A stretch of 64,000 bases of DNA from Parcubacteria group bacterium M6-OD1-1 (GCA_003056085.1 LSNK01000002.1:42485-106484); one strand, 5' to 3'; counted from the first letter of the stretch, positions 10,707-43,664 are shown. Numbers and translations: made by a program. Notes: generated by a model not told the origin, from the sequence alone.

Positions 10707-10763
10707 TTAAATTAAATTTTAATTAAAACAATGAAATAATTTTTCAATTAAAATTTTAACTCC

Positions 10764-10817
10764 TAAAAAAATAACAACATTTCTGACAGTCGTCAGAAAT
10801 GTTGTTATTTTTTTATT
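10764..10817. terminator. Bidirectional terminator for murB: 18-bp perfect stem aataacaacatttctgac-agtc-gtcagaaatgttgttatt flanked by A7 and T8
   Basis: Read directly. Confidence 0.65.
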
Positions 10818-10857
10818 TTATTTAATTTAAAGTAAAATAACTTGCTTAAAATAAATT

Positions 10858-23577: not shown

Positions 23578-23613
23578 AAATTTAACTTATTATTTTAAAT
23601 TACAAACACCACC

Positions 23614-24936: not shown

Positions 24937-25995
24937 CTATGCTTTATAAATATATCTTCCATCTTCTATTTTCTCAAAAATATCATTATTTTGCAAGTTT
25001 AACATCACCGTATTTTCTTTTACATCTCTTTCTTTTAAAACGGCGTTTAATATCTCTTGCTTTTTCATAGGTTTTTTGCTGTCTTTTAAAACTCTTTTTA
25101 AAACATCCGAGACAGTTCCTGACTTGTATCCCCACTCCGACAAAGCATATGTACCCCTGCCAACTAAGATAAATTTTTTGTCTTTTATAAGTTCATTATG
25201 CACTGTTTGAGGATGCGCCTTTTTCTTATCATTAAATTTTTCATTTATCTTATCAACCACAAATCTGAAATGCATCGGTTTTTTGTGTTTTTTCAACACC
25301 AAATAAGCCTTATCACGAACCCCCTTGGTTGATATTTCAGACCAATGCTTAATACCGTAGTCCTCATAAACATTTGAAGAAATGTTTTTTGACATAACAA
25401 GATATGACTCTAAAGTTTTTTGAGTAGCTCCGTCAGAAACAATTTGAGAAAGCCAATCCAATAGTTCTTTTTTTGTTATAGTATTTTTATGAGCTTCAAT
25501 CTTTTTTATTAAAGACTCTAAAGATTTCTTTGTTATCTGAACTACTGATTTTTTTGTTGACCAAACACCATGAAAATCAGGATTCTCCGGAGTTTTTATA
25601 AATTTATTTCCAATATTCAATAGAAAATACATCAAAGCCTCAGCGTCCTTTTTCGCCGCTTTTTTTGAAAAAAACATATCAAGATCAGAATTTAAAAAAT
25701 GATGCTCAACCCTCAAGCCTCCGTGTTCTTCTATATGACTTACCAAGGCGTCAAAAAAAGAATCTAAATTTTTTATTTCTTTAGATTTTAAAAACGCTGC
25801 TTTGGCATCGTTTTCTATTTGCCTAACTCTTTCTCTTGTAATATTGTAACCGCGTCCTATTTCCTCAAGAGTTTTTCTTTTTCCATCGGAAAGACCGAAT
25901 CTTTTTGTTAAAATATCCCTTTGTTTTTTAGATAAAGATAATAAAATATTTTCTGTTATTTTTTTGACATCAATTTTTCCTGTTTTGTTGCTCAT
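24937..25995 (-). CDS. Sigma-70 region-4 HTH domain protein with a C-terminal HARE-HTH (RpoE-delta-like) domain
   Basis: TLEEIGRGYNITRERVRQIENDA (sigma r4); C-terminal PMHFRFVVDKINEKF...FILVGRGTYALSEWGY (HARE-HTH pattern). Confidence 0.55.
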   Translation of the reverse strand: MSNKTGKIDVKKITENILLSLSKKQRDILTKRFGLSDGKRKTLEEIGRGYNITRERVRQIENDAKAAFLKSKEIKNLDSFFDALVSHIEEHGGLRVEHHFLNSDLDMFFSKKAAKKDAEALMYFLLNIGNKFIKTPENPDFHGVWSTKKSVVQITKKSLESLIKKIEAHKNTITKKELLDWLSQIVSDGATQKTLESYLVMSKNISSNVYEDYGIKHWSEISTKGVRDKAYLVLKKHKKPMHFRFVVDKINEKFNDKKKAHPQTVHNELIKDKKFILVGRGTYALSEWGYKSGTVSDVLKRVLKDSKKPMKKQEILNAVLKERDVKENTVMLNLQNNDIFEKIEDGRYIYKA

Positions 25996-26097
25996 ACTTT
26001 TGTCTCTTTTTATTTTTATAAATAAGGTAGCTTTTACTTTAGCACAAAGACTAATATTAGTCAAGAGAAATTATGAAGTTAAGCTAAATCTCAAAAC

Positions 26098-27012
26098 TTA
26101 GTTATCTTTTTTTAATTTTTTTTCCATAGTAACCAAAAGATTGCTTCCTATAAAGATAGACGAGTACGTTCCTGCTGTTACGCCTATAGCAAGCGCCAAA
26201 GCAAAATATTTAATAGATTCTCCTCCAAACATAAAAATAGCAACCAGCACTAAAATAACCGTCAAAGATGTATTTAAAGACCTGACAAAAGTCTGATTTA
26301 TAGAAATATTCACAGTATCCTCAAAGTCTTTTCCAATATGCCTCATTAAATTTTCTCTTACTCTGTCAAATACTACAATGGTATCATTAACAGAATAACC
26401 CAAAACAGTCAAAATAGCCGCTATAAAGGCGCTTGATATTTCAATATCATAAAAATTCCCTAAAAAAGCAAAAACTCCGACAGGAATAATAACATCATGA
26501 AACAAAGCAACTAAAGTGGCAAAGCCGTATCTCCAAGAAGCTAAAGGATACGAAACTCTTCTAAAAGCAAACGCCACAAACAACACAACCGCAACTAAAA
26601 CAAATATTATTGCGTTAACGGCCTTCTTTGAAAGCTCTGCACTTACAGACGGACCTACAGATTCATAGCTTTTTTGTAAAAATCCATTTCCTTCACTCTT
26701 TTTTTGCGCCGCCTCGTTTAAAGTTACTAAAATCTCCTGGTGAACTTTCTCGCTAATCTCCTTTGTTCTTATAAAGACACCTTTGTCTCCTGAAGACTGT
26801 ATTGTAATATCACCAAGTTTATATTTTGCTAAAGCATTGGAAATGTCTTCTTTTGAAAGTTGTTCCGTTTTAAATTCACCCAAAAGTAAAGACCCGCCTT
26901 TAAAATCCACTCCAAGATTCAATCCCCAAAGAAGTAAAGACAAAATAGAAAGAGCAACTAAAACTCCTGAGATAGAATAATATATTTTTCTGTATTTTGT
27001 TATTTGTACCAT
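26098..27012 (-). CDS. secF: Protein-export membrane protein SecF
   Basis: SecF topology and motifs; overlaps secD by 13 nt. Confidence 0.9.
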   Translation of the reverse strand: MVQITKYRKIYYSISGVLVALSILSLLLWGLNLGVDFKGGSLLLGEFKTEQLSKEDISNALAKYKLGDITIQSSGDKGVFIRTKEISEKVHQEILVTLNEAAQKKSEGNGFLQKSYESVGPSVSAELSKKAVNAIIFVLVAVVLFVAFAFRRVSYPLASWRYGFATLVALFHDVIIPVGVFAFLGNFYDIEISSAFIAAILTVLGYSVNDTIVVFDRVRENLMRHIGKDFEDTVNISINQTFVRSLNTSLTVILVLVAIFMFGGESIKYFALALAIGVTAGTYSSIFIGSNLLVTMEKKLKKDN

Positions 27013-28445
27013 AAAAATTTTCCTCTTTCTAATTTTAATCCTGAAAATATCTTAAGCATCATTCTTGTAATAAAGACAGCTGAAAACATTGAAACTACAA
27101 CTCCTAAAAACAAAGTCAAAGCAAAACCTTTTATTACACTTGTTGTGAAAAGATACAAAATAACGCAGGTGATTAAGGTTGAAGTATTTGAGTCGCGTAT
27201 AGAAGGCCATGCTCTCTTAAAACTATCATCTATAACAAGACTGAACGACTTCCCTGTCTTAAATTCTTCTTTCATTCTGGCAAAAATCAAAATATTGGCA
27301 TCAATAGCCATCCCCATGGACAAAATAAACCCTGCGATACCGGCAAGCGTCAGAGTAACCGGCAGAAGTTTAAAAATCGCCAAAAGTAGAACAGCATACA
27401 TCAAAAGTGAGAAAACAGCTATAATTCCGGGAATTCTATACCACAAAATCATAAATATACCTATGAGTAAAAACGCCCAAATACCAGCTGTTAAACTTTT
27501 ACTTAGGTCTTCTTTACCTAAAGAAGCCTCCACTGTCTGCTGAGAAACAAGCTTCATAGGAACGGGCAAAGCTCCGGATTTCAACCTTCCAACAAGCTGT
27601 TTTGCCTCCTCTACTGAAAAATCTCCGGTAATAACGGCCCTTCCTCCGGAAATAGCCTCATTAACAACAGGATTGGAAATAGGAACTCCGTCAAGATAAA
27701 TAGCCACAGTTTTACCGACATTTTCCGATGTAAGCGACTCAAAAAGACCAGCTCCCTCTTCGTTAAAATATAAATTTACAACTGGAACATAGGTGTTTTG
27801 ATCAAAAGTCAACTCTGAATTTTCTAAAAATTTACCATTTAGAGGCGTGGAAACATAATAAGGATCCTCAGTAAGCCTCTCTCCGGCTTCTTGCGCTTTT
27901 AATATCTTATCTTTTTCCTCTTTTGGTCTTTCCGTTTTAAATTCCAAATAAGGGGTATCCCCTATCATTTTTATTGCAGCAGATACATCTTTTATACCCG
28001 CAAGCTCAACTATAATTCTATATTCTCCCGCAACTTGAGATGTTTGAACCACAGGCTCTGCCACACCAAATAAATTTACTCTTCTCTCTATAACATCACG
28101 CATCCCGTTAAGAGCATCTTTCTGCTCTTCTTTCGGAACATTTGACATATCCGCAACATAAACAAGATGAGTTCCTCCCTGTAAGTCCAAACCAAGACTA
28201 AAAGGAATATTTTTAAAATTTGGTATGCTTACCTCATATTTTTGATTTAAATAAGACGCCGACTTATTCCAATACGAAGGAAAATCCAAAGCGAAAGCAA
28301 AAAACGAAGCGATAATAACAACGAGTAATATATATCCTGCTTTCTGTCTTTCTCCTTTTGGCATAAATAAAAAACCGAAGATCAATCCAAGGCCTTTCCA
28401 AAAATATTCAAATGGTTTTAATAATAATTTATACAATTTATTCAT
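27000..28445 (-). CDS. secD: Protein-export membrane protein SecD
   Basis: SecD periplasmic domain plus 6-TM C-terminus (LTLAGIAGFILSMGMAIDANILIFAR). Confidence 0.9.
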   Translation of the reverse strand: MNKLYKLLLKPFEYFWKGLGLIFGFLFMPKGERQKAGYILLVVIIASFFAFALDFPSYWNKSASYLNQKYEVSIPNFKNIPFSLGLDLQGGTHLVYVADMSNVPKEEQKDALNGMRDVIERRVNLFGVAEPVVQTSQVAGEYRIIVELAGIKDVSAAIKMIGDTPYLEFKTERPKEEKDKILKAQEAGERLTEDPYYVSTPLNGKFLENSELTFDQNTYVPVVNLYFNEEGAGLFESLTSENVGKTVAIYLDGVPISNPVVNEAISGGRAVITGDFSVEEAKQLVGRLKSGALPVPMKLVSQQTVEASLGKEDLSKSLTAGIWAFLLIGIFMILWYRIPGIIAVFSLLMYAVLLLAIFKLLPVTLTLAGIAGFILSMGMAIDANILIFARMKEEFKTGKSFSLVIDDSFKRAWPSIRDSNTSTLITCVILYLFTTSVIKGFALTLFLGVVVSMFSAVFITRMMLKIFSGLKLERGKFLWYK

Positions 28446-28527
28446 AAAAACTGTTCTTTTTTCATTTAGAGCGATATACGATGGTTAATAGTCTACAACA
28501 AAACACCCAAATTAGTCAACTGCTCCG

Positions 28528-28554
28528 TAACGTTCGAGGTTGAACCTCGAACGT
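28528..28554. repeat. REP-A copy 1 (aacgttcgaggttGaacctcgaacgtt)
   Basis: Palindrome family gttcgaggtt[S]aacctcgaac. Confidence 0.8.
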
Positions 28555-28566
28555 TAATCTCGAACA

Positions 28567-28607
28567 TAAAAAAGAAAGGAGGTGATATATCATCACCTCC
28601 TTTTTAA
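28567..28607. terminator. Bidirectional terminator aaaggaggtgat-atatc-atcacctccttt
   Basis: 12-bp stem flanked by A/T runs. Confidence 0.6.
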
Positions 28608-28610
28608 AAA

Positions 28611-29550
28611 TTACTCTTTTTTGCCGTGTAATTCAAAAATAACATCATTGAGCCTGCTAAGATTGTCCTGGCATTTTTCAATTCGTTTTTTGATTTCCAA
28701 AACATCTTCAGGATTTATTCTTGAAACAATATCTTTTAAAGAACTCTCCGGCATCATATTTACAGCATTTACTTCCTTATTTATTCTTTCAACAAAAGAA
28801 ACAAATTTCTGAATATTACTGCTTATCCTTTTTCTTCTTTTGATAACCATATGACTATCAGGAAGCCCTTCAACCACATTATTTACAAAACTCTGCCTTT
28901 CCTTCCCGCTTTTTAATGTCAGCATTTTTTCGTATATGCTTTTTTGATGTTCACAAGACACTTTTGCAAGAATTAAAGCCGTAGTAAATCTAAGCCTCTT
29001 GTCGTCCGAAACATTAGGATGCATTAGACTTTGGAGTTCCGGAGATAATCTTTGCAAAGAAAGATATTGAGAAACCCAAGAACCAGACTTGCCAAGACCT
29101 ATTGCAATTTCAGAAATAGACCTGTTGGCTACCACTTCTTTTTTTAAAGCATTTGATATCTCCATATTCGTATGGGGGTTTTTTGTGAAAATTCAAAATA
29201 AGAGAAGCTGAAAAAAGATCATCAACGCTCTTTATATCCATATCTATATAGATTTTGACACGCCTTACATCGGCATGCACACAACCTCTCCATCTGCTTT
29301 CACCATCAATTATGACATATTTTACGCCGGGAATACCGCAAACCTCCACAACAGAAACGGGGTCTTTCAATCCCTTGGTTATTATACTTTCTGAAAGTGA
29401 AATAATCTCCTCCTCACAAAACCAGTCTCTCGGCTGTCCTTTGTAAGGAGCTATTTCTTCAATATTTGCCATTGTAGGCAATATATGACAATCGGGATTT
29501 TGTATAACAATGTTTTCATCCTTCAAATCCACCGCTTCAGAAACATTCAT
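28611..29550 (-). pseudogene. parB-like gene split by a frameshift. An N-terminal ParB/Srx nuclease-like domain (29110..29550) is followed, after a frame change at a T7/A7 homopolymer (29139-29145), by the HTH part (28611..29165).
   Basis: GQPRD...YVIIDGESRWRGC ParB N-domain; ISEIAIGLGKSGSWVSQYLSL HTH; the two ORFs overlap 56 nt in different frames across the A7 tract. Confidence 0.6.
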
Positions 29551-29683
29551 AGATAGTTTCCTCCTTTATTGTTAAAGTTCTTTTTTTAAAAAAATCAATC
29601 CAAAAAATTTGACATTTTTTTATTCATATTACATACTCAATTTATTAGCACATTAAAAACCAAAAAACAAGGAGATTGCCGTT

Positions 29684-30409
29684 ATGAACCGCCTATCAGA
29701 TGAAGAAAAATTGGTTAAAAAACATAGATTATTGGTAAAAAATATAGCCTATAAAATATCATTAAAACTGCCAAAAAGCATTGCTCTTGATGATCTTATT
29801 CAAGATGGCATGATCGGACTTTTAGACGCTGCTAAAAAATATGACTCTTCTCTTGGGTCATCATTTGAAACTTACGCCAGCATACGCATTCGCGGAAACA
29901 TACTTGATGGATTGCGCAACAGCAATATTCTTCCAAGAGGAATCATTCATCTTTCTCAAAAAATAAAAAAAGCAGAAGAAAAAGTTCAAAACAAAAAACT
30001 AAGACCCATCACAAATAGTGAAGTAGCAAAAGAAATGGATATTCCAATAAAGGAATTTCATAAAATACTAAATGACATTCAACAAGGCAACATGATATCA
30101 ACTGAAAATTCACGATTTACCAATGACTCAAAAGGAAGATCAGTTCTTGACTGGTATGAAGACAACAACTTCAATCCGGAAGTAATTTTAGAAATAGAAG
30201 AATTCGTTGACTCATTAAGCGCATTCGTAAAGTCATTACCGGAAAGAAAACAGGCTATTTTCACATTGTCTGAAATAGAAGGTTTAAGCGAAAGAGAAAT
30301 AGGAGTACTGTTTGGTATATCAGAATCAAGAGTAAGTCAAATCTTAGCTAAAGTACGAAACGAATGGAAAGCGGAACAATTTGCAGCAAACTTAAAACTG
30401 ATTGTTTGA
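29684..30409 (+). CDS. Sigma-70 family sigma factor (FliA/sigma-28-like group 3) with a strong SD (AAGGAG) 10 nt upstream
   Basis: Region 2 FETYASIRIRGNILDGLR; region 4 LSEREIGVLFGISESRVSQILAKV. Confidence 0.85.
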   Translation: MNRLSDEEKLVKKHRLLVKNIAYKISLKLPKSIALDDLIQDGMIGLLDAAKKYDSSLGSSFETYASIRIRGNILDGLRNSNILPRGIIHLSQKIKKAEEKVQNKKLRPITNSEVAKEMDIPIKEFHKILNDIQQGNMISTENSRFTNDSKGRSVLDWYEDNNFNPEVILEIEEFVDSLSAFVKSLPERKQAIFTLSEIEGLSEREIGVLFGISESRVSQILAKVRNEWKAEQFAANLKLIV

Positions 30410-30420
30410 TAAACAAATCC

Positions 30421-30458
30421 AAAGCCCCTCGTTGCCTTAAGGCAACGAGGGGCTTTTT
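30421..30458 (+). terminator. Terminator: 16-bp perfect stem aaagcccctcgttgcc-ttaa-ggcaacgaggggcttt plus T5
   Basis: Read directly. Confidence 0.75.
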
Positions 30459-30475
30459 CATTCTCCCATAGATTC

Positions 30476-30498
30476 TCCCATAGGTGTCACCTATGGGA
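30476..30498. repeat. REP-B copy 1 (tcccataggtgTcacctatggga), preceded by a partial duplication ctcccatag
   Basis: Palindrome family cccataggtg[W]cacctatggg. Confidence 0.8.
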
Positions 30499-30534
30499 AT
30501 TCCTTGTTCGAGGTTCAACCTCGAACAAGGAATT
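30498..30534. repeat. REP-A copy 2 (37-nt palindrome aattccttgttcgaggttCaacctcgaacaaggaatt), directly abutting REP-B1
   Basis: Read directly. Confidence 0.8.
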
Positions 30535-30535
30535 T

Positions 30536-32161
30536 TTATTTTTTCAAAAGAAGTCTCGCAACTCTCAGCTCATCAAAAGAAAAATCACGACCAAGTATGT
30601 CACGAACAGGCACAAGCTTTGTGTCTTTTGTTTTTAAAAAAGCATTTTTTATCTCCTTTAGTCTGCTTTTTTTAAACTCCGCCTCCAAATATTTTAAATC
30701 CAACTCCTCCCCACCTGCTAAAATCTTTTCCAAATACCCCACAACTGTCCTCTCTTTTATACCTCTTTTTTCTGCAATTTCAGAAATAGAAAGTTTTTTT
30801 TCAACAAGCAGTTTAGTTTTTTTTAGCGTGGAAACATTTTCTTTTTCAGTTTTTTCAACCTTGCCCAAAAATTTATTCAGTTTATCTTTTTTTTCTTCAT
30901 CATCTAACTTCTTAAGCTCGCTTAAAGCTTTCTCTGACGCCTCTTTCAGCTCTTTGTCTAAAAAAAGCGCTTCTTCATTAACTTTAAGAGCCATATTATT
31001 AAGTCCCAAAAGCTTAAGCCCGGAAAGTGAAGAAACGCGCGATAAAGCGACATAGCCCATCCCTTCTACAAATGATCTTGAAAGATCTATTTCAGCGGCG
31101 TCCAAAGTCATCCCTTGGCTTTTGTGTATGGTTATCGCCCAAGCTAAACGCAAAGGTATTTGCCTTACCTGCGCTCGAACTTTCCCATCTTCCTCAACGC
31201 TCCACTCCGCCGGCTCCGCCAATATATTTTTTCCGCTGAAAGTTTTTACCAAAGGCAATCCGGAATCGGAAAATCCAATAACCTCACCAAGCGTTCCATT
31301 GGCATATCCGGTATCAAAATTATTTTTCGTAAACATTACAAAAGCCCCCCTCTTCAAGATAAGTCTTTCAGGCGAAAGACAGCTGTTTTTTAAGCTTTCC
31401 GAAAGCTTTTTATTTCCGGAAAGCTGCATTTGGTAGGACTTTGCCGTCTCAGATATCTTCCTAAGTTCTTTCTCATTAACTCTATCCACATCAAAATTAT
31501 GCGTATGAAGTTTTGTCGCAACAGAACTTTCAACAACTCCATCAAACCTTTTTTGTAAAATATCAAGAGTATTTTTCCTAATTTCTCCGGAGCGAATATC
31601 CTCAAGTACTCCCAGAAGCTCATCTTTATTTTGACGATGCTGTTCACTTAAATAACAAACCTTCAAGTCCATACCGCTCCAAACCTTGGATTTGTTTATA
31701 AAATCCGCTTTTTTACTGCCTTGGCTGATGGGAGGCAGCTGAAAAAAGTCCCCGCAAAGCACAACCTGTAAACCGCCAAACGCAAGATTATTTTCAAAAA
31801 AAGCCTTTAAAACCTCATCCACCAAATCCAATCTAAAAGAGTGAAGCATAGAAACCTCATCAATTATCAAAACTTTAGTTTTTTTAAAACGCCGCGCAAC
31901 TTGCGGTTTTTTAAGCACCTTAAAAACCTCCTCGGGAGAAAGAAAATCACGGATACCAAGCCCGGACCAGGAGTGAATAGTCATCCCGTTCATATGAGTT
32001 GCGGCAACTCCGGTTGAGGCGGTAACTCCAACCCCGACTTTATTTTCTTTTAAAAATTTAATGTATTTATTCAACACAAAAGTCTTCCCGCTCCCGGCAG
32101 AACCCGTCAAAAAAACATTATGCCCCATTTTCAAAATTTCAAGTGTTTCTTTTTGCGTCAT
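30536..32161 (-). CDS. PIF1/RecD-family DNA helicase with a C-terminal HTH domain. The start is taken at MTQKETLEIL; the track start lies inside the REP-adjacent C-run.
   Basis: VFLTGSAGSGKTFVL, VTASTGVAATHMNGMTIHSW, LIIDEVSML, ...ITIHKSQGMT. Confidence 0.8.
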   Translation of the reverse strand: MTQKETLEILKMGHNVFLTGSAGSGKTFVLNKYIKFLKENKVGVGVTASTGVAATHMNGMTIHSWSGLGIRDFLSPEEVFKVLKKPQVARRFKKTKVLIIDEVSMLHSFRLDLVDEVLKAFFENNLAFGGLQVVLCGDFFQLPPISQGSKKADFINKSKVWSGMDLKVCYLSEQHRQNKDELLGVLEDIRSGEIRKNTLDILQKRFDGVVESSVATKLHTHNFDVDRVNEKELRKISETAKSYQMQLSGNKKLSESLKNSCLSPERLILKRGAFVMFTKNNFDTGYANGTLGEVIGFSDSGLPLVKTFSGKNILAEPAEWSVEEDGKVRAQVRQIPLRLAWAITIHKSQGMTLDAAEIDLSRSFVEGMGYVALSRVSSLSGLKLLGLNNMALKVNEEALFLDKELKEASEKALSELKKLDDEEKKDKLNKFLGKVEKTEKENVSTLKKTKLLVEKKLSISEIAEKRGIKERTVVGYLEKILAGGEELDLKYLEAEFKKSRLKEIKNAFLKTKDTKLVPVRDILGRDFSFDELRVARLLLKK

Positions 32162-32180
32162 AATTTTATTTCCAACCCCC

Positions 32181-32211
32181 CCCATGTTCGAGGTTCAACC
32201 TCGAACATGGG
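32181..32211. repeat. REP-A copy 3 (cccatgttcgaggttCaacctcgaacatggg)
   Basis: Read directly. Confidence 0.8.
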
Positions 32212-32225
32212 AAAATTGAATTAAA

Positions 32226-35200
32226 TTAGAATTTTTGAGCGGACCACAAAATAAAAGATATATTCCCTGCAATTTCCGCACCTTTGCCGTCTAAATTTAA
32301 AGCGTTATTAAATGGACCTGACTCTTCTCCCCACCAATTGTTTTTTGCACTTATAGGTAAAGATCCTCCACCTCTTACCGTGTATTTACTGATTATGCTT
32401 GGATAAATATTTGAATTAGAAATTGTAATCTTAGACTCTCCTTGAGTATAAAGACTTTCATTTGAAATATTTTTAAATTCTGAATTTAATATAACAACCT
32501 CTCCATCATCTAAGGCAACTATACCTCCTGTATTTTCTTCAAAAACAGTATTAGACATCTCTATACTTCCCCCTCTTGCGAAAATAACTGCCGACTGAAA
32601 AGACCCTTGTAAAGAAAAATTACCTCCATAAGAAAATACAACATTATCAAAAACTGCTATCTTGCTTTTTTCTGTGATGTTTAAAGCCCCCCAAAGTCCG
32701 GCTCGATAACCATTTTCCTCCGTATTTGGAGTTGATAAAGCTGTAAAATATATTTTATTTTCTTTTGTTCCTACAGCTTCTATTTCGCCATTAATTACAA
32801 ATACAGCATTTTGCATCATACTCAAGGTTACCCCGGAAGCTATTGTTAGTTTAGCATTCTCGCCAACACTTAACCAATCAATAACATAGGGAATATCTTT
32901 TTCAAATACAAAATCATCATCAATATTTGCTAAAATTCTTACTCTGCTTTTTTCATCAAAATCATTATCTAAAATAGTCAATCTGCTTCCAATATTCCCT
33001 CTTATAAAAATATTATCCTTATCTCCCTCAAAATTATTTTTTTCTATCTTGAACTCAGAAGTTGTTGCAGTTTTTAAATAAATATCAATAATATTTCCGG
33101 AAAAATTATTTTCTGAAATAACAGAAGATGACTTTTGATCGCCTGCATATATACCATATCCATTGAATTCTCTATTGGAATAAACATTTGGTTCTGTATT
33201 TTTAATTTCACAACCGGATATTTCAGGATAAGAATTTTCTTCTATATTTATTCCGAACGCTTTACTTTCTTCAATTCTACAATTTAAAATTTTAGGACTT
33301 GAATTTTTAATATACAAAGAACCTTTATAATCATCTGAAGAATACCTATTTGAAGCTCCCCCATATCTTATAATAACATTTTCCAAAACAGAATTAGATG
33401 CTTCTTCTCCAAATATTTTAATATTTCTCCACATACCTGACTTTGTTTCTACATCCTGTTTGTCGCTATTATATCCATCCACCTCATCATCTGATATATA
33501 TGTAAAAATAATTTTTTCTTCTTTTGTTCCTTTAGCGCTTAAAGTTCCGTATACAATGATTGGAGTTACTAAAGAATCTTGATAATTCCTATTCCGAGAG
33601 GACTTAATAACGACCCCGGGATCAATTTCAAGCTCTCCGCCTTTTTGAATCGTTATGCTTGACTCCACAATGTACGACATATCATTTTTTGAAAAAATTG
33701 CTTTTGTGCTTGAAGCTATCGCGCCAGCTATATATATCCCGTCTTCTTTATTTTCATCTTTATTATTTTTTATCTTAATATTAAAAGAATTTGAATATAT
33801 GTCTATATTTCTTTCGTTTCCGGAAAAAATATTATTTTTTATTATCAATGGAGTACTTGATGCTGATTTAGAAACTATACCTTTGTTATTATTTTCAAAA
33901 ATACTATCCAAAATTTCTGCTGTTGAACTTGCATCTTTTATATAAATTCCATATCCGTTTTGCGCTTTGTTGTTTATGTAGCTTGCATCAGTATTCTTTA
34001 TAGAACAATTTGCTATTTTGGGGTTCGAACCATCTTTTATATAAATTCCATATCTACTCGAATTATCAATAACACAATTTTCTATTTTTGGACTTGAGCT
34101 GAATACACTTAAAGCGCCCTCGGACACAAAACTCATCTGAAATCTTTTTGCCGCTCCTCCATATTTTATTTGAATATTTTTCAAAACTGACTCCTCTCCT
34201 GTATTTTCGAAAACTATCCCTCTCCAATCTCCAAAAACAGGCTCTCTATTTTCCAATTGGTCAGAATTAACTCCGTCTGCTTCATCATCAAAAAATGAAG
34301 TAAATATTATATCTTCATTTTCCACTCCTTTAGCATCTAAAATTCCATTTACCAATAAAAAAGACTCTGTATTTTGATTTGACTTTACACCTCCAAACTT
34401 AACTGTCACTCCCGGCTCTATGATTAAAGTTACACCTTTTTGAATAGCAATTCCATAATTTATATAATAAGGACTCGCTTCTTTTGACCAAAAAGTATCT
34501 TTTTCTATATTTTTACCTATATGTGTATAAAGCCCTGAAACGCTATTCTTTCTTCCTGGAGTCCCCAAAATTTCATTTTCTGAAGCATCTTTTGCAAAAA
34601 CATCACCAGAAAAATCAAGCCAGTTTAAAGCATCGTCACCTTCTGAATAAACACTGACACGCTCCATTGTTCTTTTTTCTGAATTATCACCGGCATGCCA
34701 CTTATTTGTAAAATCAATTAAATCTCCTTTATTATCTCTTAAAAATAAATCCGATCCCAACCCAATATTATTCATAGCTCCGGTATAAAGTTGATTTTCT
34801 TTAATGTCAGTCGTTGTGCTTGCTGTTCTTTCAAGTAGATAATATCCTTTCGGCTCTATCACACCGGTAAGTTCAATAGAAAAATTTTTTGAATTTTTAA
34901 GAGTCCAACCGGAAAGATTTATTTCATAGTCCATTTTATTGTAAAGCTCTATCCACTCATCACTTGAGTCTGCACTTGTCCCCATCCATGCAATTTCATT
35001 TATAACCACCGGGACTTTATAAGACAAAAACTGCATTAAAGCCCAATTTGATTCTATCTTATTTTCTATATTTTTTGCCTTTACCCGAAAAATATATTTT
35101 ACATCATCTCCTGTTGTTAAAAACTCAACTGTCGTTGAGCTTGTTTGATCCTCTATATCCTGCCAATCCTCTTGAAAATTTGTTTTATATTGCAAATCAT

Positions 35201-37028
35201 AAACTATACTTTCTGTACTTGAGGCATTCTCAAATTCCGCTCCAAAACTTAAGACCACTTTCTTTTTACTAACATCATAACTGCTTAATATTAAAAATGG
35301 ATCTCCTAAAACTAAAATCTTTTTAGTCGAAGATGCTATTTTATCAAGTACATCTTCAGTAGAGGATGCTATTTCTCCTGCGAGAACACTCTCCGTTGAC
35401 GATGCTATTTCGTTAATTATATTTTTGGTTGACGACGCTGTATCTTCAGCTAAAACATCACCCATTGGATCTTCTTTTTGTTTTTCAACTTCAATAACCA
35501 AACCGGCAGAGGCGCTGGCCGAACCACCGGAAAAAACAGGTACCACATTAACACCACCCAAAAAATTAGCTGGCACCTCCACAATATCATATTCACTCTC
35601 CACCACTTCATCCTTAGTCACCACTTCAACCTCATCATTCTCCACTAAAACACTTTCATCCCCCACTTTAACATCGTCTTCCACCACTTTAGTCTGAGTA
35701 GTTTCTTGGGTTAATGGTAACGCTTCGGGAACAAGAACATCAAAATCAACTTTCGGAGCGCTCTGTTTGGCGTCTTTTGCACTCTCAACCACTACATCTA
35801 TAATCTTCTCATTAATAATTTTAGAATCTTCTTTTTGATTTTTATTAACTTCTAATAAAACATTATTTTTTACATTATTTTGAGTGTTGTTTGGAAAAAT
35901 AGAAATAAAACTCGCAGATAATTTACTATTCATGTTACTCGCGAAACTTTTAACACCATCAAAAATATCAATAGCTTCATCTTTAATATTTTCAACAACT
36001 TTTACAATTAAACTTTTATTTTTATTATATAAAGCAAATGTTTGTTTTTCTTTTTTAACCTCTTTAAAAAATAACTCAATCACACCGGCACCGTGTAAAA
36101 CAGCTTGCTTGGAAAGAAGATTCCAATAATCATTTAAAATTAAATCATCGTAATCTTTCAAAGAATATAAATCTTCAAAATCAAGTATCGCAAAATTAAA
36201 TTCTCTTTTAATTTTAACAAGTAAGTAGTTGTCTTTATAAAGAAATCTATAACTTTTTCCATCACTTAACAAAATTTCTTTTTCATTTTTGTTTATAACT
36301 GGCTCAATAAATATATCATTATTTATTGTATTCCTACTAAAAAAGTTATTATTTGAATAATTAGCAATACTATCAAAATATTCATCCAAAGAATTTAGTT
36401 TTATCTCTTCTTGACCTTCCAACTTACTTGCAATATCTATAGTTGATAAACTAAATTTTTTAGCCCAATTTTCATAAATACTTCTTTGATGAAAAACAGA
36501 ATCTAAAATTGGAGGATGAGCATCATTTCTTGTATGCGCAGGAACGGACGCATCTTCAATTAAGTGTAAAATATGTCCTAAAGATTTCATTGCCCTTTGT
36601 CTATCTCCATAAACATACTCATAAATAGCTCTGTCCCAGGAAAAATCAGAACCAAAACTAAAATAATCACGCAACAAATTGAAAAGACCTGCCTGACTTT
36701 TTGATAATGAAGCCTGCTTTTCCGTGCTTTGTGCCCAGATTTTTGAGGTAACACCACCTTTCATGGCTTTATTATTAATTGGATCATAAAAATGATTTAA
36801 AGCTCTTGTCCCTGGACTATCTTCATCTACGCTCCCCTGCATAATATTAATCTCGTCATTCTTACTAATTTTTTCAGGATATTTACTTTTATAAAATTTT
36901 ACCATCTCTTGAGTTAGCCCTCTATGTGTAGTTTCCGGACTGTAAGCATACAAAAAAACAGGAATAGTAAAAAATATTATTCCCACAAAAACATATTTTA
37001 TTACATTTATAAGCTTTCTATTTTCCAT
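32226..37028 (-). CDS. Giant (1600 aa) secreted/surface protein: zinc-dependent phospholipase-C/P1-nuclease-like domain, a Ser/Thr-rich linker with ASSTE repeats, a lamin-tail domain, and multiple right-handed parallel beta-helix (PbH1) repeats
   Basis: N-terminal TM/signal; HLIEDASVPAHTRNDAHP; VINEIAWMGTSADSSDEWIELYNKMDYEINLSGWTL; repeated NCxIxNS..YGIYI.D/ISGCEIKNT motifs. Confidence 0.75.
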   Translation of the reverse strand: MENRKLINVIKYVFVGIIFFTIPVFLYAYSPETTHRGLTQEMVKFYKSKYPEKISKNDEINIMQGSVDEDSPGTRALNHFYDPINNKAMKGGVTSKIWAQSTEKQASLSKSQAGLFNLLRDYFSFGSDFSWDRAIYEYVYGDRQRAMKSLGHILHLIEDASVPAHTRNDAHPPILDSVFHQRSIYENWAKKFSLSTIDIASKLEGQEEIKLNSLDEYFDSIANYSNNNFFSRNTINNDIFIEPVINKNEKEILLSDGKSYRFLYKDNYLLVKIKREFNFAILDFEDLYSLKDYDDLILNDYWNLLSKQAVLHGAGVIELFFKEVKKEKQTFALYNKNKSLIVKVVENIKDEAIDIFDGVKSFASNMNSKLSASFISIFPNNTQNNVKNNVLLEVNKNQKEDSKIINEKIIDVVVESAKDAKQSAPKVDFDVLVPEALPLTQETTQTKVVEDDVKVGDESVLVENDEVEVVTKDEVVESEYDIVEVPANFLGGVNVVPVFSGGSASASAGLVIEVEKQKEDPMGDVLAEDTASSTKNIINEIASSTESVLAGEIASSTEDVLDKIASSTKKILVLGDPFLILSSYDVSKKKVVLSFGAEFENASSTESIVYDLQYKTNFQEDWQDIEDQTSSTTVEFLTTGDDVKYIFRVKAKNIENKIESNWALMQFLSYKVPVVINEIAWMGTSADSSDEWIELYNKMDYEINLSGWTLKNSKNFSIELTGVIEPKGYYLLERTASTTTDIKENQLYTGAMNNIGLGSDLFLRDNKGDLIDFTNKWHAGDNSEKRTMERVSVYSEGDDALNWLDFSGDVFAKDASENEILGTPGRKNSVSGLYTHIGKNIEKDTFWSKEASPYYINYGIAIQKGVTLIIEPGVTVKFGGVKSNQNTESFLLVNGILDAKGVENEDIIFTSFFDDEADGVNSDQLENREPVFGDWRGIVFENTGEESVLKNIQIKYGGAAKRFQMSFVSEGALSVFSSSPKIENCVIDNSSRYGIYIKDGSNPKIANCSIKNTDASYINNKAQNGYGIYIKDASSTAEILDSIFENNNKGIVSKSASSTPLIIKNNIFSGNERNIDIYSNSFNIKIKNNKDENKEDGIYIAGAIASSTKAIFSKNDMSYIVESSITIQKGGELEIDPGVVIKSSRNRNYQDSLVTPIIVYGTLSAKGTKEEKIIFTYISDDEVDGYNSDKQDVETKSGMWRNIKIFGEEASNSVLENVIIRYGGASNRYSSDDYKGSLYIKNSSPKILNCRIEESKAFGINIEENSYPEISGCEIKNTEPNVYSNREFNGYGIYAGDQKSSSVISENNFSGNIIDIYLKTATTSEFKIEKNNFEGDKDNIFIRGNIGSRLTILDNDFDEKSRVRILANIDDDFVFEKDIPYVIDWLSVGENAKLTIASGVTLSMMQNAVFVINGEIEAVGTKENKIYFTALSTPNTEENGYRAGLWGALNITEKSKIAVFDNVVFSYGGNFSLQGSFQSAVIFARGGSIEMSNTVFEENTGGIVALDDGEVVILNSEFKNISNESLYTQGESKITISNSNIYPSIISKYTVRGGGSLPISAKNNWWGEESGPFNNALNLDGKGAEIAGNISFILWSAQKF

Positions 37029-37603
37029 ACTTTATTATTTTTTAAAAATATAATTGTATTACTAATTTTTTCTCCAGCAGGTATTGTAAATATAACATTA
37101 CCATCCTCATCCATTAATGGCTTTGTTTTTTCTACTATGTATTCTAAAATATAAACCATATAATCATCTGAATTTAAGGAAGAATTGGATTTTATTAATA
37201 CAGATTTTTCTAACTGATTAATCTTTACTTGCAACTCATTATTCTCTTTCCCAACCTTAAATTGCTCAGCCATTTGCTGCTGCTTCTCCACAATAAAATA
37301 TTTAGCCGCCAATTCTGTGTTCCCAGCTTTTAAAGCATTAATAAAAAGCTGTAAAGTCTCTTTCGGAGTACTTCCACCATATGTATCTTTCTCATACTCT
37401 TTTTTTAATCCTTCATAATATTCTAAATATTCTTTTTGAGAAGAAAATCCAATATTTTCTGAAGGTATAAATTCTTCTTTTGTTATACTTTCTAAAAAAA
37501 CAAATATCAATCCTCCAACTATTAATAACAATACAAAAACTATTGATATTATTTTGATCTTTAAATTTTTAATAATTTTCTTTTTCTGTATATTCTCTTT
37601 CAT
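37007..37603 (-). CDS. Membrane-anchored hypothetical protein (198 aa)
   Basis: N-terminal TM; overlaps the giant gene start by 22 nt. Confidence 0.45.
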   Translation of the reverse strand: MKENIQKKKIIKNLKIKIISIVFVLLLIVGGLIFVFLESITKEEFIPSENIGFSSQKEYLEYYEGLKKEYEKDTYGGSTPKETLQLFINALKAGNTELAAKYFIVEKQQQMAEQFKVGKENNELQVKINQLEKSVLIKSNSSLNSDDYMVYILEYIVEKTKPLMDEDGNVIFTIPAGEKISNTIIFLKNNKVWKIESL

Positions 37604-37704
37604 GTCCTTTAAAATTAATATTTAATATTTATTTAAAATTAGTTATATTATTTAAAATTAATATCAATCCCAAAACATCATTACTCCCATCTATATTCGA
37701 TGTC

Positions 37705-37731
37705 TATGTTCGAGGTTCAACCTCGAACATA
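37705..37731. repeat. REP-A copy 4, immediately downstream of the RAYT-1 stop
   Basis: tatgttcgaggttCaacctcgaacata. Confidence 0.8.
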
Positions 37732-37752
37732 TAAAAGATATTTGATTTTTCT

Positions 37753-38448
37753 TTATTCCAATATTAAATCTTTTAAAAATTTCTCATTATTTTTCCCTAT
37801 CCAATTTCTTATAAATTCCATCATTTCCTCATTATTTTTCCAATAATTAGGAAAAGTTTCCTTGTTAATTATTTTATCTGAAAAATCATCTTTTAAATAA
37901 TTTTTATAACTTGACCATTTATATCCCTCTATAAACTTAATTGCATCATCAATATTTAAAATTCCATTTTCCTTCCATTTTGACTCCACCAAATCCAGTG
38001 GATTTATATGAATATATACAAATAAATGCCTCAAATACTCATCCTTGCTAATATGAACAGCTTTAAATCTTCCCTCAAACAAAGATCCCGTTCTTTTATT
38101 TTTTTTATTAAAATACATAGTGTATCCAGTGCCAAGCTTTCTCATGAACTCAGTGATTCCTCCCTCTTTATTTTCCCTAATCAATAAATGAAAATGATTT
38201 GGCATAAAGCAATACAAAACAACATCAACTAATTTTTCTTGATCCCCTCCCATCCCAAGGTCTTCATGTTCGAGGTTCAACCTCGAACATGAAGACCTTG
38301 TAAGTTTTGAAGGCTTATTAGAATTAAACTCTCTAAGTCCTAATTTAAATCTTTCATAAAATTTCGGACCTAAAAAAATATTGCGCTTGTCAACACCTCT
38401 ATTATATATATGATAGTATTCTCCTTGTTCAAATTTATGTTTTCTCAT
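37753..38448 (-). CDS. REP-associated tyrosine transposase (RAYT, IS200/IS605 TnpA Y1 family), paralogue 1; carries an in-frame REP-A copy inside the ORF
   Basis: YHIYNRGVDKR, HuH motif MPNHFHLLI, catalytic-Y region GSLFEGRFKAVHISKDEYLRHLFVYIHINP; colinear with E. coli TnpA_REP (HMHCIW...QPRFWEHAIRNTKDYRHHVDYIYINPVKHG). Confidence 0.8.
   Translation of the reverse strand: MRKHKFEQGEYYHIYNRGVDKRNIFLGPKFYERFKLGLREFNSNKPSKLTRSSCSRLNLEHEDLGMGGDQEKLVDVVLYCFMPNHFHLLIRENKEGGITEFMRKLGTGYTMYFNKKNKRTGSLFEGRFKAVHISKDEYLRHLFVYIHINPLDLVESKWKENGILNIDDAIKFIEGYKWSSYKNYLKDDFSDKIINKETFPNYWKNNEEMMEFIRNWIGKNNEKFLKDLILE
38257..38301. repeat. REP-A copy 5: 45-nt perfect palindrome caaggtcttcatgttcgaggttCaacctcgaacatgaagaccttg located inside the RAYT-1 coding sequence (codes ...RLNLEHEDLG...)
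   Basis: Read directly. Confidence 0.8.
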
Positions 38449-38490
38449 AATATTTTATTATCATTATTCCCCTCCTATGCTCTACCCTTT

Positions 38491-38515
38491 ATGTTCGAGG
38501 TTGAACCTCGAACAT
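38491..38515. repeat. REP-A copy 6, immediately upstream of the RAYT-1 start
   Basis: atgttcgaggttGaacctcgaacat. Confidence 0.8.
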
Positions 38516-38526
38516 GGGAGATTTTT

Positions 38527-40614
38527 CTATTTAATTTTTCCTTCTTTTATGTCTTTAATAAATTGAGTAGCACGAGCTCTTTCCTTCGGGAAAAGCTCTA
38601 TTATTTTTTTAGTGGTTTTTATGGCTCTTTCTTCCTCGCCCATTTTTGCAAAAGCGACAGCCACGTCTATATATTGCTTCGTTGAGAGCTTTCTTGTATT
38701 TAAAATATTATTATAAACATCTATGGATTTTTGTTTTTGACCAAGTTTTGCATAATTAAACGCGAGCGTCATTTCAAATTTAAGACTACCCGTAAGTTCT
38801 GCCGCTTTTTTTAAGTTTCTAAGCGCTTCTTCATTTTCTCCCAAAAGAGCCTTTATTCTATACCTTTGAAGATACAAAGTTGGTTTTTGCGGAGCAAATT
38901 CCAAAGATTTTTCCAAAACTTTGTCGGCTTCCAAAAGAAGATCTCTGTTTTCTCTATCCACCGCTGCCATACTTGAAAGAAATAGATAATATCTAAAATT
39001 ATCCGGCTCTTCTTTTGCTGTTTTTCTTAACTCTTCTTCAGTTTTATCAAAAAATCTCCTTTTTTGTTCTTCCGGCATATTTTTTATTTTTGTGATTTTC
39101 TGAGCGTATTCAACCATCCTTGAACGCATTTCAGGCTTTCCCATAAGAGCTGTTTCTAAAGATTTCTCAAAATATCCCAAAGCTTCATCTGACCTTGAGG
39201 GATGCAGCTGTAACGCCTGGATGCCAAAATAAGAAGACTGAGCGGGTTTGACATTGAAGCCATAGATCAAAAAACCCAAAATAACAATAAGCAAAACAGC
39301 CGGTTGTATCGGAATATTTGCTTTTTTGTCTGCAATTTCCTCTTTTTCTGATGTTAAAAATACAAAAAATGCGAGTAAAAAGAAAAATGATAAATAAGTA
39401 ACCAAACTGTCAAAAACAAATATATTTTGGAAAAAATAAGCAAAAAGCAAAGCCATAAAAAGATAACTCACAAAGAAATTATCTTCATTTTTCCTCCTGT
39501 ACTGCAAAAGCAAATAGATAGCCGCGGCAAATATAGCCAAGTAACTTAAAAGACCCACAAAGCCGGCTGAAGACAAAGTGTCAAAAATTATATTATGCGC
39601 ATGATCAAACCAACTCTCTGCCGGATAAAGTCTTGGGTCATAGTATTTGTCAAAAATCAAATTGTAATTTTCCATTCCCCAACCCAAAACAGGATGCTCT
39701 TTAACCCCTTCCCAGCTTACACCGGCTGACAAAATTCTTGTTTTTGTGGTTGAATCTGTTAAAGATATGGAAGTTAATCTTTTTATAGGCTCCAAAAACG
39801 CATTTGCATTAAACAAAGCCAATATCAAAACCAAAAATAACCCCTTCAATATCCAATTAAATATTTTATTTTTTGCAGGATTAAGCCATTCTTTCAAATT
39901 TGATTTGTTTTTAAAGAAAAATGCTCCGCCCAAGAACAAAAATGACGCTAAAACGCCCAAAATAGCCCCTCTTGTTGAACTTAAATACAAAGCCAACAAA
40001 CTCACAAATAAAGAAACTCCATAAAAATATTTGAACTTATTTTTATCCGAAAACAGCAAAAACATCGCGAAAAAAGCATTAAACATCATATAAGCCGAGA
40101 AAAATGCGGCGTTTCCTATTGTGGCGTCTATTCTATTGGTCCCGGAGTTATATAAAAAAGAAAATCCTATTTTTTGTCCAAGCCCATACAAACCGACGAT
40201 AAAACCTGCCGCCAAAAAAGACCTGAAAAGAAAAATCCAATCTCTTTTTTTTAAAAATATAGATTTTGCAATCAAAAAAAGCGCCACAAAATGCGCTAAA
40301 TTAAAAATCCCCAGCATCCTTTCAAATGTTCCAAAAAAACTTCTAAAAATATTTTCTCCAAAAATTGCAGCTATAGTAAAAACGCCAAGAAAAACCAAAA
40401 CACTCTTTGTCAGCACATCAAACTTAGGAAGATAAGATTTATTTGAAATCGCTAAAATAATATATAAAAACAGCGCCACCTCTATCAAAACCTGAAAAAC
40501 CAATGTTTTAGGAACTATAAATGGAAAATAAAACTGATCCAAAACAATAAGAGGAGTGAAAAAAGACGTCGCAATAATCCATTTTATTATATTTACGATG
40601 GTTGATTCTTTCAT
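38527..40614 (-). CDS. O-antigen ligase-like (Wzy_C) polytopic membrane protein fused to C-terminal TPR repeats, paralogue 1
   Basis: LSSTRGAILGVLASFLF motif in a roughly 12-TM domain; C-terminal TPR-like helical repeats; about 50% identical to the neighbouring gene. Confidence 0.7.
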   Translation of the reverse strand: MKESTIVNIIKWIIATSFFTPLIVLDQFYFPFIVPKTLVFQVLIEVALFLYIILAISNKSYLPKFDVLTKSVLVFLGVFTIAAIFGENIFRSFFGTFERMLGIFNLAHFVALFLIAKSIFLKKRDWIFLFRSFLAAGFIVGLYGLGQKIGFSFLYNSGTNRIDATIGNAAFFSAYMMFNAFFAMFLLFSDKNKFKYFYGVSLFVSLLALYLSSTRGAILGVLASFLFLGGAFFFKNKSNLKEWLNPAKNKIFNWILKGLFLVLILALFNANAFLEPIKRLTSISLTDSTTKTRILSAGVSWEGVKEHPVLGWGMENYNLIFDKYYDPRLYPAESWFDHAHNIIFDTLSSAGFVGLLSYLAIFAAAIYLLLQYRRKNEDNFFVSYLFMALLFAYFFQNIFVFDSLVTYLSFFFLLAFFVFLTSEKEEIADKKANIPIQPAVLLIVILGFLIYGFNVKPAQSSYFGIQALQLHPSRSDEALGYFEKSLETALMGKPEMRSRMVEYAQKITKIKNMPEEQKRRFFDKTEEELRKTAKEEPDNFRYYLFLSSMAAVDRENRDLLLEADKVLEKSLEFAPQKPTLYLQRYRIKALLGENEEALRNLKKAAELTGSLKFEMTLAFNYAKLGQKQKSIDVYNNILNTRKLSTKQYIDVAVAFAKMGEEERAIKTTKKIIELFPKERARATQFIKDIKEGKIK

Positions 40615-40645
40615 TTTTTATTTTAGAGTTTATGCGTTCAATGGT

Positions 40646-40676
40646 TACCTCCCATAGGTGTCACCTATGGGAGGTA
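40646..40676. repeat. REP-B copy 2 (tacctcccataggtgTcacctatgggaggta) between the two Wzy-TPR paralogues
   Basis: Read directly. Confidence 0.8.
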
Positions 40677-40691
40677 AAGGAAAATTTTATT

Positions 40692-43643: not shown

Positions 43644-43664
43644 ACATAGGTGACACCTATGGGA
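43644..43664. repeat. REP-B copy 4 (degenerate: acataggtgAcacctatggga) just upstream of the RAYT-2 start
   Basis: Read directly. Confidence 0.65.

Follow-up and report, generated by a model that had tools for sequence, protein, structure and literature searches.

Two described regulators of transcription have the ParB fold: KorB, a sliding clamp gated by CTP, acts as a promoter repressor (PMC11790492), and VirB is a CTP-dependent activator of the ParB type (PMC10770331). In repetitive extragenic palindrome (REP) systems such as that of E. coli TnpA_REP and the REPINs of Pseudomonas, the genes of REP-associated tyrosine transposases (RAYTs), which are of the Y1/HUH type, are bracketed by short palindromes, and the remaining repeats lie in intergenic gaps (PMC3116915, PMC5581495, PMC3733652). 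Two RAYT paralogs with different cognate palindromes are a signature of these systems (PMC3116915, PMC5581495), and one end of the REP carries a GTAG or CGTC tetranucleotide tag (PMC3733652). In the literature, nothing directly relevant was found on the pairing of a ParB gene with a sigma factor gene, or on RAYTs in the candidate phyla radiation (CPR). Here we describe a locus that holds relatives of both kinds of system, in a 64,000-nt stretch of Parcubacteria group bacterium M6-OD1-1 (GCA_003056085.1, LSNK01000002.1:42485-106484), called hereafter the window, whose first letter is position 1 for all coordinates below.

The locus is a block at 28.5-38.5 kb, upstream of secD, with a frameshifted parB-like gene, a divergently transcribed sigma factor gene, a helicase gene, two genes for a giant surface protein and its neighbour, and a RAYT gene. 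An initial annotation of this DNA had taken ParB, helicase and sigma factor to be typical of a plasmid, phage or integrative element, and the block to be possibly such an element, remnant or resident. On its sequence, the block is best read as a composite and not as a coherent mobile-element gene set. We consider it probable that the block is a lineage-specific variable segment composed of four independent pieces, rather than the remnant of one element. The pieces would be a parB-sigma cassette, a PIF1-HTH_40 helicase, a giant lamin-tail domain (LTD)/beta-helix protein with its DUF4878 companion, and the transposase-like gene RAYT-1.

The host chromosome is Candidatus Azambacteria-like (Parcubacteria/CPR). 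The window has a GC content of about 32%. Of its 40 open reading frames (ORFs) with 150 aa or more, the minus strand carries 38. The window was compared by tblastn to the closest available genome, the sole comparator, a Candidatus Azambacteria metagenome-assembled genome (L007, JALTWS010000011.1) whose SecD protein is 77% identical. Between 13.7 and 42.8 kb the two are collinear, with the exception of positions 28446-38535. Genes in common include secD (27000-28445, the left neighbour of the block), secF, and the genes for a HARE-helix-turn-helix (HARE-HTH) protein, a DUF8128 protein, a TrwB-like ATPase and EF-P; on the far side of the block, a gene for a protein with an O-antigen-ligase-like membrane domain and TPR (38527-40614, minus strand) is likewise found in both. 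At the place of the block, L007 carries about 1.4 kb with a NUDIX gene and a 215-aa gene, neither of which has a match in the window, so that its secD is preceded by these two small genes and then by the ortholog of 38527-40614. Since it is missing from L007 between conserved flanks, the 10-kb block is lineage-specific relative to that genome, which bears out its proposed accessory status as a presence/absence polymorphism in this one comparison.

Both breakpoints abut a palindrome of the family called REP-A. On the left, the secD promoter (TTGACT-N17/18-TA[G/A]ACT) can be aligned between the window and L007, and similarity upstream of secD ends about 8 nt before REP-A copy 1. On the right, 11 nt separate REP-A copy 6 from the stop codon with which the syntenic gene 38527-40614 ends. 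The two copies at the breakpoints have the same orientation and a central G, whereas the four internal copies have a central C. The block had been described as bounded by REPs, which is correct, but its right end relative to L007 is at about 38.53 kb and not at 37.7 kb.

Two families of palindromes were defined, REP-A with the core GTTCGAGGTT[C/G]AACCTCGAAC and REP-B with the sequence CCCATAGGTG[A/T]CACCTATGGG. Exact REP-A cores number six in the window and REP-B copies four, where zero are expected in shuffled sequence, so both families reported earlier are real. REP-A is confined to 10 kb around RAYT-1, where all six copies are located, and is missing from the remaining 54 kb; no intergenic gap of the block is without a copy. 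Copy 1 (28528-28556, 14-nt arms, centre G) is next to secD. Copy 2 (30498-30534, 18-nt arms, centre C) lies 1 nt from the pif1 stop codon and is abutted by a REP-B copy (30476-30498, 11-nt arms). Copy 3 (32181-32211, 15-nt arms, centre C) separates the giant gene from pif1, and copies 4 (37705-37731, 13-nt arms, centre C) and 6 (38491-38515, 12-nt arms, centre G) are the downstream and upstream flanks of RAYT-1. Copy 5 (38256-38300) is a 45-nt perfect palindrome that forms 15 in-frame codons in a hypervariable loop of RAYT-1. REP-B is found at 30.5, 40.6, 42.9 and 43.6 kb: besides the copy already given, one (40645-40677, 16-nt arms) is between two O-antigen-ligase-like/TPR paralogs, one (42916-42940) is at the 3' end of a second RAYT gene, RAYT-2, and one (43645-43661, degenerate, with 8-nt perfect arms) is upstream of RAYT-2. 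No copy of either family was found in any of about 160 other fetched loci. As a separate observation, L007 has its own, unrelated palindromic repeats of the CCCTAGGG type at 9147-9185, in the gap that matches the 10-kb block.

All copies are perfectly palindromic, and their arms outgrow the core by complementary bases that differ from copy to copy (arms of 12-22 nt for REP-A, 8-16 nt for REP-B). When eight copies (six REP-A and two REP-B) were folded as single strands, they gave hairpins of 11-21 bp with energies of -10 to -25 kcal/mol and z scores of -5 to -12. The copies are single palindromes with no obvious REPIN doublets, and no GTAG or CGTC tag, or its complement, was found in or beside any of them. 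The copy-specific stems could have arisen by insertion into hairpins already present, by an inverted duplication of the target, or by a template-switch "palindrome correction".

RAYT-1 (37753-38448, minus strand) encodes a Y1/HUH transposase-like protein that scores 32.7 bits against Y1_Tnp (PF01797, cut-off 23) and matches the NCBIfam family REP_Tyr_transpos with an E value of 2.7e-10. Its H85-F-H87 (HUH) motif and Tyr145 in YIHxNP are conserved, H85, H87 and Y145 being invariant among 13 homologs, and its family counts 17,924 cluster representatives at E<1e-3. A phmmer search of RAYT-1 against PDB sequences gave no significant match, so that its identity rests on Pfam, NCBIfam and motif conservation. 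A tblastn search with RAYT-1 found its paralog RAYT-2 (42909-43613, minus strand, 47% identity, Y1_Tnp 35.3 bits). Two REP-A copies in inverted orientation, at 37708 and 38493, enclose RAYT-1, and REP-B at 42918 and 43643 encloses RAYT-2, whose last eight or so codons and stop codon are supplied by REP-B. The catalytic motifs of RAYT-1 are intact in spite of the internal REP-A copy, and the equivalent loop of RAYT-2 contains no REP.

There is thus a Y1 gene with cognate palindromes on both sides and further extragenic copies, save the one inside RAYT-1. Because each of two RAYT paralogs is flanked by its own distinct palindrome, the repeats constitute a REP/RAYT system (PMC3116915, PMC5581495): REP-A and REP-B are genuine REPs, each with its own resident RAYT. 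The initial annotation was right that the repeats are genuine, but it overlooked both transposase genes, RAYT-1 lying 53 nt beyond the end of the region that it had delimited.

As in the described systems, Y1/HUH genes are bracketed by short palindromes and the other repeats sit in intergenic gaps, and as in Pseudomonas, two RAYT paralogs each have a distinct REP family. Several differences from classic systems were noted. A CPR bacterium of very small genome size is the host, and its REPs, perfectly palindromic around a single central base and extended by arms that are specific to each copy, lack the tag and show no obvious doublets. One REP makes up in-frame codons of the RAYT to which it belongs, and a REP of the other family provides the 3' end of RAYT-2. 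Finally, the RAYT, of about 230 aa, falls under the REP_Tyr_transpos cut-off.

At the left of the block, parB is split into two pieces on the minus strand. The N-terminal piece (29110-29550) has a ParB_N domain (PF02195, E 7.7e-11) and a 22-aa out-of-frame tail; the C-terminal piece (28611-29165) has a KorB/HTH_ParB HTH (PF08535 KorB, 23.9 bits, above its cut-off) and a helical C-terminal region, and is followed by a terminator-like hairpin of 13 bp with a T-run (28575-28603, minus strand). The two frames overlap at 29110-29165. The frameshift site is a run of five G on the plus strand, C5 on the coding strand (29174-29178), with one extra base, and dropping one base of the run gives a single 312-aa ORF, so the gene is split as had been claimed. 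The repaired protein is colinear from end to end with the homologs P0121 (310 aa, 58% identity) and P0123 (316 aa, 55%). At the junction, these two read NFHKK[P/L]HTHMEISNAL in one frame, where the window would read NFHKK-P-HTNMEISNAL.

On the metagenomic contigs L022 and L021, which carry close homologs, the DNA at this site is AAA AAA CCT CAT and AAA AAG CTT CAT, respectively, and the intact homologs imply an ancestral C4/CCN. Since the DNA of both differs there, the shift is not a conserved programmed site, but a lineage-specific insertion of one nucleotide. Apart from the extra base both halves are intact, which points to a recent lesion, and parB is most likely a recent pseudogene in this genome. 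If tRNA-Pro slipped by +1 on CCC-C, exactly the ancestral ParB peptide would result. Such slippage could perhaps rescue the gene at a low level.

The shift is in an A6C5 homopolymer tract, which raises the question of a sequencing or consensus error, and the segments of the block are bounded by identical cores of 21-27 nt, at which their order could in principle result from a mis-join. Three assemblies with separate accessions agree on this C5, the other two being L001 (the Logan assembly of SRR14803397) and L024 (VAPL010540591.1, 1123 of 1123 positions identical), and these two independently span secD-parB-sigma. The REP cores, moreover, are shorter than the final assembly k-mers, although L001, assembled at k=31, breaks off in the hairpin of the sigma terminator, some 25 nt short of the first REP copy. 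We regard an artefact of either kind, or both, as very improbable.

The repaired ParB scores 65.4 bits against TIGR00180, over the cut-off of 58.45. Boxes I-III of the N-terminal domain, which has the CTP-binding ParB_N fold, were recognized in the N-terminal piece, where the motifs QPR, GExRWR and NF are kept. Alignment A1 shows no variation at Q39 P40 R41, G83 E84 R86 W87 R88 and N120 F121; variable or absent in it are the leading Arg of box II and the box III Glu, the box III position being the one that we take to be equivalent to the catalytic Glu. The HTH is joined to this domain in one polypeptide in P0121 and P0123, not in the window. Searched against PDB, a profile of the family had Noc, ParB and KorB as its top matches (Noc 7ng0, E 3e-29; KorB 8qa8, E 1.7e-20). 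An AlphaFold2 model of P0121 (pLDDT 85) was closest to chain 8qa9_B of the KorB-KorA complex (E 4e-11, TMt 0.76), and in that model a helical region past the HTH would close in a 30-residue helix. By profile and predicted structure, the protein is a KorB/Noc-like member of the ParB family without a ParA partner, and CTP function is predicted for it. The family is small: only seven relatives were found at E<1e-5 among 5.8 billion proteins.

KorB (of IncP plasmid RK2, structures 8qa8 and 8qa9), VirB (of Shigella) and Noc, ParB proteins with tasks other than segregation, have in common with the window protein the ParB_N fold with QPR, GExRWR and N-F-x-[KR] boxes. With KorB the likeness extends to a KorB-type HTH, KorB also being the best structural match of the intact homolog. 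No ParA is adjacent, and the gene faces a divergent promoter region, as expected of an autoregulator. Compared to KorB, the protein is about 23-30% identical, it is found in a chromosomal context in CPR-like organisms, and the window has none of the partners KorA, IncC and TrbA; the partner is instead a sigma factor, and the window's own copy is frameshifted. A ParABS system would have an adjacent ParA gene and clustered parS palindromes. No ParA/Soj-like ORF was found in the window or in contigs L021-L023, and no palindrome is shared by the window with L021 or L022.

An alternative function for REP-A, in place of or besides that of a RAYT substrate, would be that of parS- or operator-like sites at which the ParB protein would load and then spread over the 10-kb block. 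The O_B site of KorB is palindromic over 13 bp around a central G/C, and REP-A is perfectly palindromic over 21 bp around one central C/G. The six copies of REP-A are all within 10 kb around parB, with none elsewhere in the window, and the ParB fold is closest to that of KorB. Four observations argue against this function. L021, L022 and a third contig with a parB homolog, L159, have no REP-A-like or other repeated palindromes; REP-A brackets RAYT-1 just as REP-B brackets RAYT-2, 5 kb from any parB; one copy lies within a RAYT ORF; and parB is frameshifted here. This function for REP-A is therefore extremely improbable, and the REP/RAYT pairing set out above is retained.

Divergent from parB, and against the local orientation (it is one of only two plus-strand ORFs among the 40), is a gene for a 241-aa sigma factor resembling the FliA/WhiG type (group 3, sigma-28-like; 29684-30409, plus strand). 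The two genes are separated by a control region of 133 bp (29551-29683) with a promoter-like site, TTGACA-17-CATACT (29609-29637), and a Shine-Dalgarno (SD) sequence, AAGGAG, 9 nt ahead of the sigma ATG. A terminator with a 16-bp stem, a TTAA loop and a T-run follows the gene (30421-30456, plus strand). The protein has regions r2, r3 and r4 of Sigma70 and no r1.1. It scores 189.2 bits against TIGR02479 FliA_WhiG, 0.4 bit short of the cut-off of 189.6, and 187 bits against PRK06986 (cut-off 201), and its best PDB match is FliA (E 1e-36). The earlier description of a sigma-28-like gene with its own SD and terminator is thus confirmed, and the gene looks intact. No homolog above 43% identity exists among the 5.8 billion proteins searched, and the best named matches are gammaproteobacterial FliA proteins.

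The region order r2-r3-r4 without r1.1 and an identity of about 40% to gammaproteobacterial FliA are common to this protein and to the FliA/WhiG sigma-28 factors. Unlike these, it has no flagellar, chemotaxis or FlgM genes around it in the window, where TAAA-N15-GCCGATAA promoters, as expected of a flagellar or late-gene sigma, do not exceed chance and no FlgM-type anti-sigma factor was found. The sigma-28 promoter TAAA-N14-16-[GC]CCGATA[AT], and its -10 part alone, occur at chance level in the window and do not occur upstream of any gene of the block. Non-flagellar use of FliA/WhiG-type factors is known, for example that of Chlamydia sigma-28.

Composition gave no sign of foreign DNA. GC content and GC content at third codon positions (GC3) are 0.333 and 0.248 for sigma and 0.337 and 0.281 for parB, within one standard deviation of the window means (0.332±0.033 and 0.269±0.034). 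The GC anomaly that had been suggested as a check on mobility is thus not there. The codon-usage distance of sigma is raised, and so is that of EF-P (20336-20908, plus strand), the only other long plus-strand ORF; this indicates strand bias and not foreign origin, and beyond this bias no departure in codon usage was seen for parB or sigma.

The parB-sigma pair recurs elsewhere. The three nearest ParB homologs (58, 55 and 34% identical) are each encoded divergently from a gene with sigma-70 r2, r3 and r4, on the metagenomic contigs L022 (JGI 3300003543), L021 (JGI 3300009513) and L159 (JGI 3300000571), the last of which has a GC content of 44%. ParB N-domains are 75-78% identical between the window and L021 or L022. 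The partner sigmas are FliA-like but only 26-42% identical to that of the window, no closer than proteobacterial FliA, so the parB-linked sigmas evolve fast, with identities of about 40% where the partner N-domains are at 75-78%. Intergenic motifs common to L021 and L022, including GTCAA[T/G]TGAC and TTTTTAAAGTACT, are matched weakly by the window. A UppP fragment ends L021 and adjoins the pair, which indicates a chromosomal setting for this pair. The linked, conserved unit is therefore parB-sigma only, and it is rare.

Some further features of these contigs were noted. In L021, the sigma gene, an upstream motif TTTATTTTTTAAAGTACTGTTTTT (24 of 24 positions identical) and the terminator are duplicated on either side of parB (2162-2981 and 4137-4942). 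A 534-aa membrane protein, the neighbour that L021 and L022 have in common, recurs as a neighbour of this ParB family in L021 (556-2160), L022 (1-201, 91% identity) and, more distantly, L025 (5-1144, 29%). A SpoU methylase is another recurrent neighbour, in L159 (1873-2388) and L023 (5682-6122).

The helicase follows a different pattern. It is a PIF1-family SF1B helicase with a C-terminal HTH_40 domain (30536-32164, minus strand; PIF1 E 1.3e-39, HTH_40 E 9.6e-17), in agreement with the earlier assignment. The mechanically called ORF reaches 32185, into the REP flank, but its homologs are of about 541 aa, which makes the ATG at 32164 the probable true start. More than 8000 homologs were found at E<1e-30, the named ones in Campbellbacteria, Pacebacteria and other Patescibacteria, with identities descending gradually (78, 78, 76, 75, 73, 62, 60 ... 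%) as for a core gene. In three relatives of 75-78% identity, the gene is located within a GH1-EamA-GH10 ... pif1-PGA_cap-dCTP deaminase-HtrA-MscS neighbourhood, and in a relative of 62% in yet another; none of its neighbours in these relatives is in the window. Compared to the bacterial PIF1-HTH_40 helicases of Patescibacteria, annotated there as "AAA family ATPase" or "helix-turn-helix domain-containing protein", it has the same full domain set (PIF1, 2B domain and HTH_40) and 55-78% identity to thousands of them, and differs by location only, theirs being between GH10/UPF0114-type genes and PGA_cap-dCTP deaminase. The core-like range of identities and the different, conserved context in relatives together mark the helicase as a core gene of Parcubacteria, inherited vertically and relocated here. 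A pif1 gene also stands beside a ParB homolog in L025; this was judged coincidental, that locus being an ordinary chromosomal region and pif1 a core gene.

These data bear directly on the proposal that the block, or at least parB-sigma with or without the helicase, is a decayed integrated plasmid, phage or integrative element, in which ParB would have served maintenance or regulation, sigma would have driven the element's genes, and the REPs would be recombination junctions. The block is indeed missing from the nearest genome, its breakpoints are at REP-A copies of the same orientation, and parB is pseudogenised. The sigma factor has no homolog above 43% identity, and distant relatives of ParB are known from viral contigs (49 in IMG/VR) and from plasmids (about 1700 records); the relative P0125 (33% identical) is beside a phage-type gene. 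None of the relatives in viral contigs (31-36% identical) has a neighbouring sigma gene, however, and in the phage and plasmid collections searched with ParB only partial matches of about 30% to KorB/ParB genes were obtained.

Nor were the genes of an element found. There are no integrase, relaxase, replication or structural genes in the block; a scan of ORFs at about 18-52 kb gave no integrase or recombinase, the large ORFs 40692-42809 and 43801-47109 being outside the Pfam scan. No tRNA or Rfam family was detected in the 64 kb. The only terminal repeats are the two same-orientation REP-A copies, and a defence-system signature was likewise not seen, PADLOC models giving only generic similarity to sigma domains and RecD. 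Together with the lack of a composition anomaly, the vertical pattern of the helicase and its location elsewhere in relatives, the chromosomal context of the L021 pair, and the two RAYT genes that account for the REPs, this makes the decayed element an unlikely origin. The proposed mobile gene set accordingly does not hold together, since the helicase is a core gene and only parB and sigma are linked. The idea that REPs mark junctions is retained in part: both synteny breakpoints do abut REP-A, but the copies are explained by the resident RAYTs and not as the ends of an element.

Several points nevertheless weigh against the composite segment as we propose it. Synteny is based on one genome only, in which SecD is 77% identical and which belongs to another species or genus, and REPs were counted over 64 kb only, on a contig that is 207 kb long or longer. 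RAYT-1 reaches 40 bits where the cut-off of the NCBIfam REP-associated transposase family is 80, and the REPs have no GTAG/CGTC tag, which is typical of the classic REP superfamilies. FliA-type promoters are not in excess of chance, GCCGATA occurring three times on both strands of the window for about three expected, and no operator common to the window and L021/L022 was found in the divergent control region. An integration of long ago, whose mobility genes were later lost, is possible. So is a mobile ancestry of the parB-sigma cassette, given the distant relatives of its ParB in viral contigs and the similarity of about 30% to plasmid KorB/ParB.

For a composite segment, the pieces of the block would have been joined by REP-associated insertion or deletion, or by short-homology recombination, and joining mediated by REPs seems the likeliest because REP-A is in every gap and at both breakpoints. 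Each REP family would be seeded into nearby gaps by its own RAYT, in the form of stable single-strand hairpins. By analogy with KorB and VirB, the ParB-like protein would load at an operator located within the shared 133-bp region or close to it and so tune its own expression and that of sigma, which in turn would redirect RNA polymerase to a small dedicated regulon. With ParB broken and the SD, promoter-like site and terminator of sigma all retained, the cassette may be deregulated or in decay in this genome.

A bolder account combines two novelties: that parB-sigma is an undescribed ParB-CTPase/sigma module of CPR bacteria, and that, independently, the REPs grow copy-specific perfect stems. 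The CTP-gated clamp may directly control, or physically partner, a dedicated alternative sigma factor, in an arrangement conserved in four unrelated contigs; ParB might even be a DNA-loaded anti-sigma factor or co-activator, possibly loading at REP-like palindromes. The stems, for their part, would point to insertion into hairpins that were there before or to an inverted duplication of the target, which is not known from RAYT/REP systems. This account seems to us decidedly unlikely.

If the composite segment is correct, ParB, helicase and sigma genes side by side in a CPR genome need not mean a mobile element. A conserved orphan ParB-CTPase/sigma-28 pair would extend the ParB-fold transcription switches, known from KorB and VirB, to a sigma partner, and it bears on the poorly understood regulation of ultra-small bacteria. 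The REP/RAYT system is small, with two cognate pairs within 6 kb, and in so tiny a genome a full catalogue of the copies is feasible. The pieces of the block are ordinary by themselves; the ParB-sigma pairing and the perfect-palindrome REPs most deserve the attention of specialists.

The remaining genes of the block are both on the minus strand. The giant surface protein (32226-37028, 1600 aa) has an LTD domain and right-handed beta-helix/NosD repeats, and the start of its gene is overlapped, as in an operon, by that of a membrane-anchored DUF4878 protein (37007-37603).

To the right of the block, 38527-40614 and 40692-42809 (minus strand) are tandem O-antigen-ligase-like/TPR paralogs with 72-76% DNA identity over stretches of 300 nt, and L007 has three or four such genes in series. 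To its left, directly downstream of secF, 24937-26064 (minus strand) encodes a fusion of Sigma70_r4 with HARE-HTH, whose position is kept in L007, L002 and L003. At 21841-24867 (minus strand), the TrwB/VirD4-like ATPase with a treble-clef zinc finger is followed by the DUF8128 protein; these two are syntenic in L007 at 66-71% identity, and so look like a conserved CPR pair and not a conjugation remnant. Farther left are a long AT-rich intergenic hairpin, formed by a 46-nt inverted repeat, 78% complementary, with a gap of 4 nt (10742-10837), and a 78-aa Lys/Ala-rich, histone-H1-like ORF (10164-10400, minus strand) made of tandem coding repeats of the direct-repeat family D1.

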